Below, one piece after another: positions 49,743 to 55,206 of a DNA stretch of 62,084 nt. Position numbers and translations under genes: made by a program. Source of the stretch: a virus (lineage: Duplodnaviria > Caudoviricetes); IMG/VR virus record IMGVR_UViG_3300032267_000768, positions 1-62,084 of that record; one strand, written 5' to 3'. Within the stretch, counting starts at the first letter, position 1. Each line of letters opens with the position of its first letter. The notes under the pieces are model-generated. The model made no database searches and was not told where the DNA came from. It saw only the letters and a list, made by a program, of their open reading frames with translations.

Positions 49743-50765
49743 ATGGCATTTTTTAAAAAAGCTGCTTGTTTCACTGATATACATTTTGGATTAAAAGGCA
49801 ACAGCCGAGTTCACAATGATGACGGAGAAGCATTCTGTCATTGGTTCATTGAGCAGGCCAAAGCACACGGTTGTGAAACCTGCATATTCCTAGGAGATTG
49901 GCATCATCACAGGAGTGCCACCAATGTCAGCACCATGAACTACACTGTCAGCAACATGGAGAGACTGGGCCGAGCGTTTGAAAAGGTCTATGTGATCATG
50001 GGCAATCACGATCTATTCTACAGAGACAAGAGAGAGATCAACAGCATGGAATACTGCAGGAACATTCCCAACATCGAGATCGTGAATGAGTGGTTACTGG
50101 CTGATGATGTAGCTATTATACCATGGATCGTGCATGACGAGTGGAGGAAGATACAGGATCTAAAACAGAGATATATTTTTGGACATTTTGAATTGCCTTA
50201 TTTTAAAATGAATGCCATGGTAGACATGCCAGATGTGGGCACTATCAAAGCAGAACACTTTGTGAATCAAGAGTATGTGTTCACAGGACACTTCCACAAG
50301 AGACAGATTAGAAACAATATACACTACATCGGCAATGCATTTCCTCACAACTATGCCGATGCTGGAGATGATGAGCGTGGCATGATGGTGTTGGAATATG
50401 GTGGACAGCCCAAATATATCAACTATCCCAACATGCCCAAGTATAGAAATGTAAAAATATCACAGTTACTATCTGATGCTGACAGCATATTGGCACCACG
50501 AATGTATGTGCGTGTGGGATTGGATATTAAAATTTCCTATGAGGAAGCCAACTTCATCAGAGAAACATTTATGGAAAAATATCAGTTGAGAGAATTACAA
50601 TTAATTCCAGAACAACTGGATCAAGCAGATCAGCCCATGGTCACTGTGGAAAAATTTGACTCGGTGGATCAGATTGTGATCAAACAGTTGGAAGCAGTGG
50701 ACTCACAGACCTATGATAAAAAAGTATTAATGGCAATTTACAATAATTTAGATGTTAACAATTAA
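49743..50765 (+). CDS. gp47: Recombination endonuclease subunit (Mre11/SbcD-like)
   Basis: DIHFG, LGDW, GNHD, GHFE, GHFH metallophosphoesterase motifs. Confidence 0.92.
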   Translation: MAFFKKAACFTDIHFGLKGNSRVHNDDGEAFCHWFIEQAKAHGCETCIFLGDWHHHRSATNVSTMNYTVSNMERLGRAFEKVYVIMGNHDLFYRDKREINSMEYCRNIPNIEIVNEWLLADDVAIIPWIVHDEWRKIQDLKQRYIFGHFELPYFKMNAMVDMPDVGTIKAEHFVNQEYVFTGHFHKRQIRNNIHYIGNAFPHNYADAGDDERGMMVLEYGGQPKYINYPNMPKYRNVKISQLLSDADSILAPRMYVRVGLDIKISYEEANFIRETFMEKYQLRELQLIPEQLDQADQPMVTVEKFDSVDQIVIKQLEAVDSQTYDKKVLMAIYNNLDVNN

Positions 50766-52545
50766 AGATCTCACAGTAAAAAACTTCATGAGCGTGGGCA
50801 ATCATACCCAAGCAGTAAACTTCGCTGGTAAAAATCTAGTGCTGGTTATCGGTGAGAACATGGATTTAGGAGGAGATGATGCTGGTGCTCGAAACGGCAC
50901 AGGCAAGACCACTATTATAAATGCCATCAGTTATGTGTTCTTTGGTGAAGCACTGACCCAGATACGAAGAGACAATCTAGTGAATAAAACCAATGCTAAA
51001 GACATGTTGGTCACTGTAAATTTTGAGAAGAACGGTGTACACTACAAAATTGAAAGAGGTAGAAAACCACAGGTACTGAAATTCTTTATCAATGAAGTGG
51101 AACAAAATTCCGGAGCAGATGGTACTGAAGATAACAATGAAGCACAGGGGGAGAATAAAGAAACACAAGAAGAGATTAATAAGTTAATTGGCATGACTCA
51201 TGCTATGTTTAAAAACATTATTGCTCTTAACACTTATACATTGCCATTCTTAGCAACCAAACAAGCCGAGCAGAGAGAAATTATAGAACAACTGTTGGGT
51301 ATAACTCTATTGAGTGAGAAAGCAGAACTGTTAAAAGAACAAATGCGAGTGGCTAAACTGGAGTTAGCAGAAGAAAAAATGCGATTAGATGCTATTCTAG
51401 TTAGTAATAAAAAAGTAGAAGAGTCTATTAAAACATTTGAATTAAGGAGTGCTGCGTGGCAGACGCAAAAGAATCAAGATATTGCAAAATTTGAATCCGC
51501 CATAGAAGAATTAGAACGAGTAGATATTAAAACAGAATTAGAATCCCATAAACGATTAGCCAAACATACAGATGATTCTAAAACGTTAAGAAACTTAGAA
51601 AAAGAGAAAAGTTATCATGAAGATTCATTAACCAAGGCTACTAAACAAAAAGAACAAACCGTAAAAGATTTAGAATATGCCGAAAAAGCCACGTGTCCTA
51701 CTTGTGAACAAGACTTACATGGAGAGAAACATGAACATCTTGTGGATGAACTTAAAAAAGATCTTGAGGAACAAACTCAATATGAACAAACATTATCTGC
51801 AAAATTAAAAGAAATACAAAGCAGCATAATATCTATTGGAGATTTGGGTTCTATACCAGACACATATTATGATTCTATCGATGAAGCATACAACCACAAA
51901 GGGTCTGTGGAAGATTTAAAACGACAATTGGAACAAACTAGCACAAAAGAAAATCCATACCAAGAACAGATCGATGAGTTAACAAAGAGTGCTGTACAAA
52001 AAGTAGATTATGTTAAAGCCAACGAAATGGAAGACTTATATAGACATCAAGAATTCTTGTATAAACTGTTGACTGCTAAGGATTCGTTTATAAGAACTAG
52101 GATTATAGAACAAAACTTAACGTATCTTAATCAAAGATTAGCATTCTATCTAACACAGGTTAAATTACCACACACAGTGGTATTCTTATCTGACTTGAAT
52201 GTAAGAATTGAAGAGCTAGGTCGAGAGTTAGACTTTGATAATTTAAGTCGAGGAGAAAGAAACAGATTAATTTTAAGTTTGAGCTGGGCATTCCGTGATG
52301 TGTGGGAAGGTCTTTACCAACAAATTAACCTATTATTCATTGACGAATTAATTGATGCAGGTATGGATATCTCTGGTGTAGAAAGCTCTATGGCAGTTTT
52401 AAAAGAGATGAGCCGAACCCAATCAAAAAACATATTCTTGATATCACACAAAGATGAGTTGATATCTAGAGTTAACTCTGTGTTAAAAGTGGTAAAAGAA
52501 AATGGTTTTACCAGTTATGCTAATGATGTTGACATTATAATTTAA
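50752..52545 (+). CDS. gp46: Recombination ATPase subunit (Rad50/SbcC-like)
   Basis: Walker A NGTGKTT, zinc hook CPTC, signature LSRGE, Walker B FIDE, ISHK. Confidence 0.93.
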   Translation: MLTIKDLTVKNFMSVGNHTQAVNFAGKNLVLVIGENMDLGGDDAGARNGTGKTTIINAISYVFFGEALTQIRRDNLVNKTNAKDMLVTVNFEKNGVHYKIERGRKPQVLKFFINEVEQNSGADGTEDNNEAQGENKETQEEINKLIGMTHAMFKNIIALNTYTLPFLATKQAEQREIIEQLLGITLLSEKAELLKEQMRVAKLELAEEKMRLDAILVSNKKVEESIKTFELRSAAWQTQKNQDIAKFESAIEELERVDIKTELESHKRLAKHTDDSKTLRNLEKEKSYHEDSLTKATKQKEQTVKDLEYAEKATCPTCEQDLHGEKHEHLVDELKKDLEEQTQYEQTLSAKLKEIQSSIISIGDLGSIPDTYYDSIDEAYNHKGSVEDLKRQLEQTSTKENPYQEQIDELTKSAVQKVDYVKANEMEDLYRHQEFLYKLLTAKDSFIRTRIIEQNLTYLNQRLAFYLTQVKLPHTVVFLSDLNVRIEELGRELDFDNLSRGERNRLILSLSWAFRDVWEGLYQQINLLFIDELIDAGMDISGVESSMAVLKEMSRTQSKNIFLISHKDELISRVNSVLKVVKENGFTSYANDVDIII

Positions 52546-52548
52546 TTG

Positions 52549-52577
52549 TTGACTATCGCTTTTTTACAGCTTACAAT
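52549..52577 (+). promoter_or_regulatory. sigma70-type promoter
   Basis: TTGACT-17 nt-TACAAT, followed by AAGGAG before ATG 52614. Confidence 0.75.
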
Positions 52578-52613
52578 ACAGATGTATTAATTAATACAAC
52601 AAAAGGAGAATAC

Positions 52614-52805
52614 ATGTCAAATACACATGAGTCGATTATGGCCGCTATTCAGACTTATTCTGAAGAGAACCAAAGGTTCACTGAAAAAGGCGTTAAAGCT
52701 TCAGGAACTAGAGCCAGAAAAGCTCTTGCTGAATTAGGAAAACTAGTTAAAGCAAGAAGAAAAGAAATCCAAGAAACTAAAAACGCTGAAAAAACTGCAG
52801 CCTAA
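52614..52805 (+). CDS. Histone H1-like (Hc1 family) small basic protein
   Basis: EKGVKASGTRARKALAELGKLVKARRKEI; has its own promoter, SD and terminator. Confidence 0.75.
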   Translation: MSNTHESIMAAIQTYSEENQRFTEKGVKASGTRARKALAELGKLVKARRKEIQETKNAEKTAA

Positions 52806-52822
52806 TTAGTAAGAAGGAATTT

Positions 52823-52858
52823 AAAAAGCCTGTGCATGCAAGTGTGCAGGCTTTTTTT
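52823..52858 (+). terminator. Rho-independent terminator, possibly bidirectional
   Basis: AAAAA-GCCTGTGCAT-GCAA-GTGTGCAGGC-TTTTTTT between convergent genes. Confidence 0.85.
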
Positions 52859-53117
52859 ATGACCCAAACCATCGCCGTGCTATAGGCGTTGAATGTTTTA
52901 AACACCACATGGTCCATTCTCTATCAGTAAATTTGGCTCGTACCACTATTTTATCTGGTTCAAAAGCAATGTCACATAGATTCTTTAGATATAACTCTTG
53001 CACATGCGGGAAACGTGCTAACCAACCCTCAAACCATATCTGAGCTTGGAAAGCATCATCATACTTTCCAACGATTTTTAACTCTCCTATGACCCTAAGT
53101 GTTCCATGTCGCTTCAT
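52857..53117 (-). CDS. Hypothetical protein
   Basis: 86-aa ORF with ATGA overlap to the GIY-YIG gene. Confidence 0.65.
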   Translation of the reverse strand: MKRHGTLRVIGELKIVGKYDDAFQAQIWFEGWLARFPHVQELYLKNLCDIAFEPDKIVVRAKFTDREWTMWCLKHSTPIARRWFGS

Positions 53118-53545
53118 AGGTCTTTATCAATAATGAGTGACCCATGCACTCGCACACGTATGTGTCCATTGTAGTACTGGTCCGATTCTAAAACTTTCCT
53201 AGCAAACTGCTCTCGAGCTTCTACGTAGTTTAATTCTGCTTTGCTCTTGCAATAATAAAGTATCTCTCTACGAAATCGGTCTCGACCTAAAGATTCTATA
53301 TCTCTAGTTAACTGGTCACTGCTGCCATAGTAGTCCATCCAGTCACTTGCCACAGCGCCTCTTATTTTTTTGCGTATTTTTTTTCCGTTTTTTTGTGTGT
53401 GCATTTTATATCGCGTAGTTTTGAATCTAGATAATTTTTTTCCCACATACATGCGCCCATTCTCAGTGTTGGTAATAAGATACACAAATCCCACACACTC
53501 GTTTGGTAATTCTATTACCGGTTCATTTCTGTAAATCCACTGCAT
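53114..53545 (-). CDS. Minimal GIY-YIG endonuclease-like protein
   Basis: GFVYLITN..MYVGKK..YYGSS..REIL..E..YYN. Start revised to 53545 (TTAAATA 5 nt upstream). Confidence 0.8.
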   Translation of the reverse strand: MQWIYRNEPVIELPNECVGFVYLITNTENGRMYVGKKLSRFKTTRYKMHTQKNGKKIRKKIRGAVASDWMDYYGSSDQLTRDIESLGRDRFRREILYYCKSKAELNYVEAREQFARKVLESDQYYNGHIRVRVHGSLIIDKDL

Positions 53546-53599
53546 GTCAGTATTTAAACTCAAGAACCTGCCAATCATAATATACGCACATTATATACA

Positions 53600-54045
53600 T
53601 GTGAAAAAGGCACATTAAAAATAATCACAATTTCTATTAGGCTCTATAGCGTCTTTGGTAAAACAGTGAACTACTCCTATTCAGTTAGGCGGCGAATCAC
53701 TTGACGCAACAGGCAAAAATGACGGAGCTCTGGGAAACAGATCCAACTCCAGGTTCATATGATATTATCATACAAAGATCATGTGAATTCGCGTTGCAAT
53801 GAATGAGCTAACGGGTACAGCGCAACCGCCCGGCGACAGCAGCGATGTATGATGACTGCGAACTCAGCACATATGCAGAGTAGGTCTATTCGGCTAGCAA
53901 TAGCCGAATCATGACTGCTCATCTAGCACATAAGGCGCACGATGCTATCGCATCGCGCTTAACAATTGTTGTATCAAGATGTAAAAGGAAACGAGCGCAA
54001 GCGAAGTTTCAGATGTGCGTAGCACATCTTGTTAGGATTGCAACT
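53600..54045 (+). ncRNA. Putative large structured non-coding RNA (or structured ssDNA/origin element); boundaries approximate
   Basis: No ORF, GC-richer than flanks, at least 7 hairpins, GCAA tetraloops, G-U pairs favouring the + strand, potential 10-bp pseudoknot. Confidence 0.65.
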
Positions 54046-54046
54046 G

Positions 54047-54286
54047 TTAAAAGAATGGCTGTCCAGTTTTTTTAGTAACGTCTAGATTGTCTTTAACTAT
54101 ACGAGAAACAATATCGCGATCCGAAGGACTCAGTGCCAATGCTTCTTGATAGGTAACTCCACCTCGCATGTACCAACAGATTTTAAACAGCTCGTGCTTG
54201 ATGCTTTTACCTTCATTTTCAAGATCTTTTAGATATTTTATAAGGTCAGATTCCGAGAGCGATAATAGTTTTATACGAAAAAATTT
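54047..54286 (-). CDS. -1 frame extension of the gp26-like gene (gp51/GT-like); not in ORF track
   Basis: Open frame KFFRIKLLSLSESDLIKYLKDLENEGKSIKHELFKICWYMRGG...GQPFF* begins at the slippery A AAT TTT TTC. The first ATG is only at 54169. Confidence 0.7.
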   Translation of the reverse strand, partial: KFFRIKLLSLSESDLIKYLKDLENEGKSIKHELFKICWYMRGGVTYQEALALSPSDRDIVSRIVKDNLDVTKKTGQPFF

Positions 54287-55128
54287 GCGTTATCAAATGT
54301 GATCGGCACTTCGTAGGTTGCTGGAGCGCCGGCTTTAATCTGTTCTTCTGTGGCTTTGACTTTGACAGGTTTGATAGAACCCTGTTGACGAATATCACCC
54401 AATTTGTTTTCTAACTCTTTGATTGTTCTAGCGTCTGCGTTTTTGATAAAATCTAAAATGGCTGTTTTATCAGTCACTGTTTCTCCTGTGGGCAGTTGAA
54501 TACGTTCGATATTGTTGATCAACAAGCTCACGTTGAGGTCGCTCAGCACTCGGAAGCTCTCAGTGAAACGTTTGGTTTTTTCTTCGGCGCTGAGATTGCT
54601 CTGAGCCACTTGTGCGTAAATTCTCTGTTGTTCAAATGTTTTTAACTGTGCATCTGTGATCTGTTTGTAGGTCAGTGGAGCAATGTGCAGGGTCAGCCCA
54701 TCCTGCAGCACACAGCGGTCTGTGATTTTTTCCTGTCTAATAGTTTCCAACATCTGCGGTAGATTCACCACGTGTGTTTGTGTTTCATTGGTTCCTGGAA
54801 CCCCTGCTGTGATTTCCATGGTCTCTCCATAGCTGGCAATTCTAATAGCAATCAACACAGTATCAATGTCATGATTGACCAGTTGCCATGGATCCTGTAT
54901 GGTAGGAATACAACTTTTAATCACATCCACAGTGGCCTGTCCATTCATCATGCTGTCAGGGGTGCGGAAACTCAATTCATCCATGGCAGTCATGGGCAAC
55001 ACAGGGTGTTCTCCCGTAGTGGTCTTTTGCACCACCGACTCGGCATAGTATTTTTCACCAGAGGGCAAACGTATGCTGATCTGCGGCTGTCTATAATAGC
55101 GTTTTAACGGGTTTGTATTTTCTACCAT
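54271..55128 (-). CDS. gp26: Baseplate hub / tail assembly chaperone, T4 gp26-like
   Basis: YYRQP..IRLPSG, PMTAMDE, IKSCIP, DIDTVLIAIRIASYGE, terminal NFF. Confidence 0.75.
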   Translation of the reverse strand: MVENTNPLKRYYRQPQISIRLPSGEKYYAESVVQKTTTGEHPVLPMTAMDELSFRTPDSMMNGQATVDVIKSCIPTIQDPWQLVNHDIDTVLIAIRIASYGETMEITAGVPGTNETQTHVVNLPQMLETIRQEKITDRCVLQDGLTLHIAPLTYKQITDAQLKTFEQQRIYAQVAQSNLSAEEKTKRFTESFRVLSDLNVSLLINNIERIQLPTGETVTDKTAILDFIKNADARTIKELENKLGDIRQQGSIKPVKVKATEEQIKAGAPATYEVPITFDNANFFV

Positions 55129-55138
55129 TTTTGTATTC

Positions 55139-55179
55139 TATAAATATACATTATATTAATGTGCTTGTCACTATTTATG
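55139..55179. promoter_or_regulatory. Pair of face-to-face late promoters
   Basis: TATAAATA (+, 55139-46) for the tape measure gene; CATAAATA (-, 55179-72) for the gp26-like gene. Confidence 0.65.
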
Positions 55180-55206
55180 TGAGCATATTTTAGGGGTTTT
55201 TAAAGC

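Follow-up and report, generated by a model that had tools for sequence, protein, structure and literature searches.

A stand-alone GIY-YIG nuclease gene beside a large structured RNA in an uncultured virus with T4-type genes

Nucleases of the GIY-YIG type are known from systems of quite different kinds. I-TevI is encoded within an intron and joins its catalytic domain, in which Arg, Glu and Asn residues have roles in the active site, to a long linker and a C-terminal DNA-binding domain. T4 endonuclease II (EndoII, also DenA) is a domain-only GIY-YIG enzyme that nicks host DNA early for nucleotide pools. For a nuclease encoded next to a structured RNA, the OMEGA systems are the obvious comparison: their nucleases, TnpB and IscB, have a RuvC/HNH fold, their loci have transposon ends, and the accompanying omega RNA contains a guide segment. 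Here we analyze a locus that resembles each of these in part, namely a gene for a domain-only GIY-YIG nuclease and, divergent from it, a structured RNA of ~380 nt. The locus lies in a 62-kb fragment of an uncultured virus with T4-type genes, a T4-like lake phage (IMG/VR record IMGVR_UViG_3300032267_000768); we refer to this whole stretch of 62,084 nt as the window.

Our leading explanation, which we hold tentatively and to which we give somewhat less than an even chance, is that the protein is a retained housekeeping DNA nuclease that is independent of RNA and probably resolves branched DNA, and that it lies beside an independent phage RNA gene. It would be a stand-alone SegE-type GIY-YIG endonuclease, kept for the phage's own DNA metabolism, working without the RNA and encoded by the last gene of a recombination-nuclease (gp46) module. 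A Lys/Arg-rich beta-hairpin, probably together with self-association, would replace the missing DNA-binding domain, and the enzyme would select its DNA by structure and clear branches during recombination-dependent replication and packaging. The adjacent element would be a separate gene that, in the window's clade, has a sigma-70-like promoter of its own and is read divergently. In a sister clade, the RNA is co-directional with the nuclease gene, begins 1-13 nt after its stop codon and is extended by the Polynucleobacter-1 motif. The last nuclease gene of the gp46 unit, of whichever type, meets the RNA at a conserved junction.

The nuclease and its family

The nuclease gene has two features of interest.

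53114 to 53578, minus strand: open reading frame (ORF) of the GIY-YIG nuclease, a stand-alone SegE-type catalytic domain; 154 amino acids (aa) counted from the first ATG
53348 to 53428, minus strand: basic insertion, residues 51-77 (about 50-77), predicted to form a long two-stranded beta-hairpin arm

The likely start codons are a TTG at 53563 (149 aa), which would yield the start MSLNT.MQW found in relatives, or an ATG at 53545 (143 aa). The Pfam family PF19835 (SegE_GIY-YIG) matches residues 14-140 in a single stretch that covers profile positions 1-123 of 123 (111.6 bits; cut-off 25), and the 148-position profile phrog_447 matches with its positions 4-139 (2.5e-37). The NCBIfam model TIGR01453 (group I intron endonuclease) aligns at positions 2-86 of 215, with 29 bits, below its cut-off of 56. 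The protein terminates 14 residues past the GIY-YIG domain. Because PF19835 spans nearly the whole protein and TIGR01453 aligns to the N-terminal part only, the nuclease has no C-terminal DNA-binding arm; by these two profiles it lacks the linker and C-terminal domain of two-domain enzymes of the Seg or I-TevI type. These results agree with the original prediction, made from the letters of the window, which had described a 143-aa protein with a very basic insertion, no C-terminal arm and little beyond the catalytic domain.

The 20 relatives that we aligned (53-83% identity) share GFVY...YIGKK, which corresponds to GFVY at residues 30-33 and YVGKK at residues 44-48 of the window's nuclease. R104, E120, E123 and N137 are invariant in the 20 sequences, and by analogy with the active-site residues of I-TevI some of them may have a catalytic role. 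The basic insertion is a family trait, since it is kept in 20 of 20 aligned relatives, although it is 6 aa shorter in four of them. In an AlphaFold2 model (mean predicted local-distance difference test score, pLDDT, 85.2), the insertion consists of strands at residues 51-61 and 67-77, a block with pLDDT 91-92. This Lys/Arg-rich hairpin is, in the model, a ready candidate for DNA contact made by the protein itself.

We compared the AlphaFold2 model with 48,161 representative chains using VIA-align, and the first six places were all taken by GIY-YIG nucleases.

I-TevI catalytic domain (1ln0_A): Z 8.6, root-mean-square deviation 2.6 A, 82 residues aligned, 24% identity
PD-T4-3: Z 7.3
UvrC N-terminal domain: Z 5.3
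T4 EndoII (2wsh_A): Z 4.9, 82 residues aligned, rank 4
HIGLE: Z 3.9
R.Eco29kI: Z 3.8

Slx1 follows at rank 12 (Z 3.1). At E<=10, phmmer matched none of the PDB sequences, not even 2wsh, and Foldseek gave no match against the PDB at E<=0.001, with 1ln0 at probability 0.94. Like I-TevI, the window's nuclease has the GIY...YIG strands and the conserved Arg, Glu and Asn. Unlike I-TevI, it has a 27-residue basic beta-hairpin that is missing from 1ln0, and it appears to be vertically inherited.

The family is widespread. In a scan of IMG/VR, 436 stretches encode a homologue, and we kept 80 loci at 60-94% identity as a gene-side set. Homologues also occur in 568 cultured-phage records, at one place per record; 339 of these records are Synechococcus phages, and the best cultured relative, at 48% identity, belongs to Methylophilales phage Melnitz. 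The gene is single-copy in all five genomes or records searched. Ratios of nonsynonymous to synonymous polymorphism (pN/pS) of 0.085-0.27 against nine relatives indicate strong purifying selection. The mean p-distance is 0.30 for the nuclease, compared with 0.41 for gp46 and 0.58 for the baseplate-hub protein. Nuclease distances correlate with those of gp46 (Mantel r 0.71, n=45) and of the hub protein (0.68, n=41), less tightly than gp46 does with hub (0.91, n=25). Because the gene is single-copy, with low pN/pS, a low p-distance and distances correlated with those of gp46 and hub, it appears to be a retained and largely vertically inherited gene, unlike a sporadic selfish one. Nor is its distribution that of a sporadic mobile gene: it is present in 139 loci, and one locus of the same context is without any nuclease. 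As a separate observation, a distant homologue (~40% identity) at L132:2309-2737 has one in-frame stop and is possibly a decaying copy.

Members of the family are variously annotated as 'NAD synthetase', as 'homing endonuclease' or as hypothetical proteins (e.g., NC_008296.2 gp202, of phage Syn9). No profile search of the window's nuclease (Pfam, PHROG, NCBIfam) supports the 'NAD synthetase' label; the profile and fold results all indicate a GIY-YIG nuclease instead. One paper treats the family as an auxiliary metabolic gene (PMC7238727). If our explanation holds, a family of hundreds of cultured cyanophage and related genomes would be a conserved single-copy nuclease rather than an 'NAD synthetase' or a 'homing endonuclease'.

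Syn9 gp202 and Melnitz gp43 belong to the same profile family (PF19835, phrog_447) and the same length class as the window's nuclease, with one copy per genome. In both phages the gene lies downstream of nrdA/nrdB, packed among ORFs with gaps of less than 150 nt and without a detectable RNA, whereas in the window's clade it is next to gp46/Hc1 and the large RNA.

The structured RNA

The following features describe the RNA.

53649 to 54029, plus strand: structured RNA of ~380 nt with 13 helices, including one pseudoknot; divergent from the nuclease gene
53788 to 53940, plus strand: central RNA domain, the most conserved, with the pseudoknot region and two repeated GUGACUGC...CCACA modules
54011 to 54029, plus strand: terminal hairpin of the RNA

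The 468-nt gap beside the nuclease gene is conserved at the DNA level among relatives and is rich in compensatory changes. In 35 distinct sequences, 72 pairs have 98.2% of their cells paired, and both partners have changed in 36 of these pairs. This level of pairing is reached in 0 of 500 shuffles, and controls with slid positions are 34-37% paired. The RNA extends at least from 53649 to 54029, and on its own strand it is flanked by the nuclease region on one side and by the antisense of a 40-aa ORF on the other.

To assign the strand, we counted G-U and A-C combinations in covarying pairs only, using 35 + 77 distinct full-length copies. In the window's clade (group A), the ratio G-U:A-C is 37:41 on the strand of the hub gene and 97:30 on the opposite strand; in the sister clade (group B), it is 68:125 and 339:82, respectively. 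Because of this excess of G-U over A-C on the strand opposite the hub gene, we place the RNA on the plus strand. The element that had been noticed beside the nuclease gene is thus a genuine structured RNA, encoded on the window's plus strand and back-to-back with the minus-strand nuclease gene, with covariation beyond that of 500 shuffles.

Three other interpretations of the element were rejected. A minus-strand RNA, suggested by invariant G-U pairs in RNAalifold, conflicts with the counts in covarying pairs, and the orientation of the Rfam family RF01718 in relatives agrees with the plus strand. A small protein-coding gene (54-aa ORF, 53911-54075) is at odds with the compensatory pairs and with indels that are not multiples of three. 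A group I intron finds no Rfam match at E<=10 and no exon context, and both neighbouring genes end at their own stop codons.

No family of Rfam 15 matches the window's RNA at E<=10, RF01718 included. We built a covariance model, R1, from a mixed alignment of groups A and B; with only 10 base pairs kept, it acts mainly as a sequence profile. Its sole match in the window, at 53788-53940, scores 136.3 bits (E 5.5e-29), and each of three contigs used as positive controls also gives exactly one match. Within the RNA, a 25-nt module (GUGACUGC...CCACA) occurs twice, at 53849-53873 and 53908-53932, with the copies 76% alike. Either copy could pair with an invariant GAAUGAGC segment, which hints at alternative pairings.

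Parts of this phage RNA are present in contigs of lake RNA libraries. Metatranscriptome contigs, which show neither strand nor ends, cover portions of it in three of four runs: 53592-53773 at a depth of ~100 (X2) and 53687-53871 at a depth of ~3 (X8 and X10). The GIY-YIG ORF occurs in contigs of one run only, at depth 2, and an 86-aa ORF next to it in none; we draw no conclusion from this difference.

The closest described RNA is the Polynucleobacter-1 motif (RF01718). It was described from 16 sequences, from Burkholderiales and from fresh water or estuary, as a likely cis-regulator of unknown function (Weinberg et al. 2010, PMC2864571); a full-text literature search found the motif named only there. 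RF01718 matches nine sister-clade loci with 87-120 bits (gathering score 37), throughout on the nuclease strand and beginning 1-13 nt past the nuclease stop codon. It was not matched in seven other sister-clade loci, two loci with a PD-(D/E)XK gene (see below) and two loci of the window's clade. On one strand of a 345-kb contig (G002), the GIY-YIG gene is followed by RF01718 and then by the RNA core. By this arrangement, Polynucleobacter-1 appears to be the 5' domain of a larger RNA in the sister clade. The 141-nt motif lies on the same strand as the RNA, directly after the sister-clade nuclease gene; unlike in the Rfam model, there is an additional body of ~380 nt, and the motif is here downstream of a gene in T4-like phage contigs. 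In a collection of genome contigs searched with a loose Polynucleobacter-1 pattern, none of the 120 matches listed was real by nhmmer. If our explanation holds, freshwater T4-like phages would encode a far larger, pseudoknotted RNA of which Polynucleobacter-1 forms the 5' domain.

In the sister clade, the RNA gene may reach into the 3' end of the nuclease ORF. The motif (A)UAGGCA(A)AC, which in the window's clade lies just upstream of the RNA (~53636-53645 in the window), recurs at the very end of the nuclease ORF, within its last ~30 nt, in the majority of eight sister-clade loci (L051, L053, L061, L064, L072, L079, L069 and L050). The last 160 nt of the sister-clade nuclease ORF contain no sigma-70-like promoter in eight of eight loci.

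Gene-RNA linkage and competing explanations

Linkage was counted from both sides. Related loci inflate all of these counts, since the loci are not independent samples, and most contigs are fragments. Among the 80 gene-side loci, nhmmer found the RNA in 70, five had flanks that were too short and five had no RNA (70 of 75 informative loci). The gene is always 5' of the RNA in these 70, on the same strand in 36 and on the opposite strand in 34, with a median gap of 84-96 nt. Of the five negative loci (L033, L041, L042, L043 and L060), R1 was applied to three: it recovers the RNA clearly in L060 and weakly in L041 (E 1.2e-3), whereas L033 has the gene and a 1.5-kb gap in which neither nhmmer nor R1 finds the RNA.

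The RNA-side set consists of 80 loci with 3-kb flanks, taken among the matches listed of a pattern scan. Within these listed matches, 72 are real RNAs and eight are chance matches; the 72 comprise 56 with a GIY-YIG gene, seven with a PD-(D/E)XK gene, six without a nuclease in at least 1.5 kb of room and three that are uninformative. A nuclease, always on the RNA's 5' side, is thus present in 63 of 69 informative loci among the matches listed (a GIY-YIG enzyme in 56 of 69). Of the six loci without a nuclease, five have a complete RNA core by R1, and the sixth (L124) is broken by the contig end. The five (L105, L112, L121, L152 and L160) have no nuclease near the RNA; 5' neighbours in nuclease-less loci include a GNAT/ATE_C-like protein, a tail-fibre protein, a redoxin with WYL_2 and a Clp protease, while the 5' neighbours in L105 have no Pfam match. 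Because these loci hold the RNA core in other phage contexts, the RNA family is wider than this type of nuclease locus. Conversely, the complete genomes of Melnitz and Syn9 have no match to R1 or RF01718 at E<=1. The linkage that had been noticed is therefore real among close relatives, as the counts from both sides show, and is not obligatory: Melnitz and Syn9 have the nuclease but no detectable RNA, the RNA occurs with a PD-(D/E)XK protein (seven loci) or with no nuclease (five), and the orientation of the nuclease gene relative to the RNA flips between clades.

RNA loci that lack the GIY-YIG gene show what can take its place. In the slot between gp46/Hc1 and the RNA they encode a protein of 168-176 aa that matches PF24608 (PDDEXK_15) and phrog_244, the latter labelled 'RusA-like Holliday junction resolvase' (L137:2278-2790, L093:4224-4739, L126:2279-2785, and loci L156, L117, L128, L094 and L097). 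In the seven RNA-side loci, this gene is on the same strand as the RNA and on its 5' side. Over all loci, 139 have only the GIY-YIG gene, eight have only PDDEXK_15 and none has both. PF19835 is missing from all five PDDEXK contigs searched, including ones of 192 kb and 83 kb, and PF24608 is missing from all four GIY-YIG genomes; positive controls worked. Among cultured phages, 77 large myoviruses have a PDDEXK_15 homologue, one per genome and mostly annotated as a resolvase. PF02945 (endonuclease VII) is missing from the same four GIY-YIG genomes (the phages Melnitz and Syn9 and two contigs, 252 kb and 345 kb long). According to Petrov 2010 (PMC2993671), gp49 is essential in T4, and other nucleases took its place in RB16 and phage 65.

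We propose a branch-clearing role because of the resolvase-like PD-(D/E)XK protein in the same slot, the missing endonuclease VII in four GIY-YIG genomes and the gp46 neighbourhood. If so, the nuclease would be a concrete candidate for the branch-resolving activity in these four genomes, which have no Pfam endonuclease VII match.

Several observations weigh against this explanation. The Mantel correlations of the nuclease (~0.7) are lower than that between gp46 and hub (0.91), and some lateral exchange is thus possible. The closest fold is the homing-endonuclease domain of I-TevI (Z 8.6) rather than Slx1 (Z 3.1), and the 'resolvase' label of phrog_244/PDDEXK_15 is an annotation only. The position after nrdA/nrdB in Melnitz and Syn9 hints at a role in nucleotide supply, as for EndoII. 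Two details of the junction would also fit a functional pair of nuclease and RNA: the gap between RNA and nuclease is at most 300 nt in 109 of 133 cases, compared with 36 of 99 for the gap between the RNA and the 40-aa ORF, and the leader motif of the RNA, AUAGGCAAAC, lies inside the last codons of the sister-clade nuclease ORF. Finally, with fragmentary contigs and many related loci, the number of independent events is small.

The main alternative, which we consider unlikely, is that the enzyme nicks host DNA early to supply nucleotide pools, as T4 DenA does, and that the RNA is irrelevant to it. EndoII is likewise a domain-only GIY-YIG enzyme of similar size, with a fold match at rank 4, and the Melnitz and Syn9 homologues lie after nrdB, where denA is located in T4, downstream of the nrd genes. 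According to Petrov 2010 (PMC2993671), no recognised denA occurs in marine cyanophages. However, phmmer detects no sequence similarity to 2wsh, and I-TevI, PD-T4-3 and UvrC all outscore EndoII in the fold comparison. The genomic module also differs: in the window's clade the gene is found with gp46 and not with nrd genes, and the protein that alternates with it resembles a resolvase.

We give a distinctly smaller chance to a selfish, free-standing Seg-type homing endonuclease, now without a DNA-binding domain, whose target would be the highly conserved RNA gene or the sequence flanking it, with the PD-(D/E)XK gene as a competing homing gene at the same site. The nearest relatives by fold and profile are indeed homing enzymes (I-TevI; phrog_7363, phrog_314 and others; TIGR01453), a single intergenic site next to invariant sequence is occupied by one or the other of two unrelated nucleases, and a Mantel r of just 0.7 leaves room for exchange. 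In addition, locus L112 has the RNA in its usual context beside the hub gene and the 40-aa ORF, with no nuclease within 2.8 kb. However, this is the one locus among the 69 informative ones (among the matches listed) that resembles an empty site in the same context. The nuclease has no DNA-binding domain, is single-copy and is more conserved than gp46 and the hub protein, its pN/pS is about 0.1, and its identity tracks that of neighbouring genes across clades.

Only slightly removed from the original prediction, in which specificity could come from the adjacent RNA, is a widened form of that idea: a functional module whose RNA would guide, scaffold or control any nuclease that fills the 5' slot. 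We regard it as improbable. It draws on the constant 5' position of the nuclease and the presence of the RNA at most gene-side loci (63 of 69, among the matches listed, and 70 of 75), on the tight junction, and on the nine sister-clade loci in which RF01718 follows the stop codon on the same strand, with no promoter seen in the end of the ORF (eight of eight loci), a layout that resembles that of TnpB with its RNA. Like the OMEGA systems, the locus has a compact nuclease gene next to a large structured RNA, and the two abut in the sister clade. Unlike them, the nucleases here are of the GIY-YIG or PD-(D/E)XK type and not RuvC/HNH, no transposon ends were seen at the locus, and gene and RNA each occur alone. 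A hypervariable, unpaired, guide-like segment was not seen in the RNA, although no dedicated search for one or for its targets was made; the variable stretches that we examined are covarying helices or optional hairpins rather than a free guide. The RNA would also have to serve two unrelated nuclease folds, it is undetectable in the two complete genomes tested from a family present in 568 cultured-phage records, its core stands alone in five loci, the orientation flips between clades, and a literature search turned up no RNA-guided GIY-YIG enzyme among the 12 papers listed of 36. The basic insertion already offers a candidate DNA-binding arm within the protein, and RNA-derived specificity is unsupported as an account of this locus. 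The tight yet non-obligatory adjacency makes the locus a test case for an RNA-dependent GIY-YIG enzyme.

The most novel form of the module idea is a single ribonucleoprotein of the nuclease and its RNA of ~380-500 nt; the RNA would guide, scaffold or gate cleavage, and the GIY-YIG and PD-(D/E)XK proteins would be exchangeable effectors. This is a long shot, although if true it would give the first RNA-dependent GIY-YIG nuclease and a function for the orphan Polynucleobacter-1 motif.

Neighbouring genes and promoter candidates

The surroundings of nuclease gene and RNA are as follows.

50752 to 52545, plus strand: gp46/SbcC-like gene
52614 to 52805, plus strand: Hc1 (chlamydial histone H1-like) gene (PF07432, 46.4 bits), which ends the gp46 unit and bounds the nuclease slot
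52829 to 52857: terminator-like hairpin and U run after the Hc1 gene
52857 to 53117, minus strand: 86-aa ORF with a 4-nt overlap (ATGA) at the nuclease stop
53551 to 53558, minus strand: TTTAAATA, a candidate late-promoter-like motif 5 nt upstream of the ATG at 53545
53568 to 53597, plus strand: sigma-70-like promoter candidate for the RNA (CTGCCA, 18 nt, TATATA)
54047 to 54169, minus strand: conserved small ORF of 40 aa (p40) that closes the baseplate-hub unit and is convergent with the RNA
54271 to 55128, minus strand: baseplate-hub gene

A blastn search with positions 52500-55200 against 50,697 phage records gave no match, and neither tRNA nor tmRNA genes were detected in the window by ARAGORN. 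The 86-aa ORF, which has no Pfam, PHROG or NCBIfam match, is found only in the window's clade (identity 30-87%) and is missing where the nuclease gene is co-directional with the RNA. Homologues of the 40-aa ORF are located beside the hub gene in both clades.

A late-type promoter had been proposed for the nuclease gene. The motif TTTAAATA ahead of the ATG is conserved in the window's clade (group A). It is one base from the T4 late consensus, and motifs of its class are not enriched in the window (13 found, 20.4 expected); it is a putative late promoter. For the RNA, an alignment of 24 upstream regions shows that relatives have TTGACC, 17 nt and TATATA at the promoter candidate, which suggests that in the window's clade the RNA is transcribed from its own sigma-70-like promoter.

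Two loci depart from this arrangement. In L019 (2153-3268) and L023 (1884-3002), the RNA promoter and the nuclease gene are separated by an inserted ORF of 371-372 aa, and the 372-aa ORF of L023 begins with the MSLNT leader (the TTTAAATA motif) that elsewhere heads the nuclease gene. In the lake metatranscriptome contigs, the deepest-covered part of the stretch is the Hc1 gene, with a summed depth of 80-250 in two runs.

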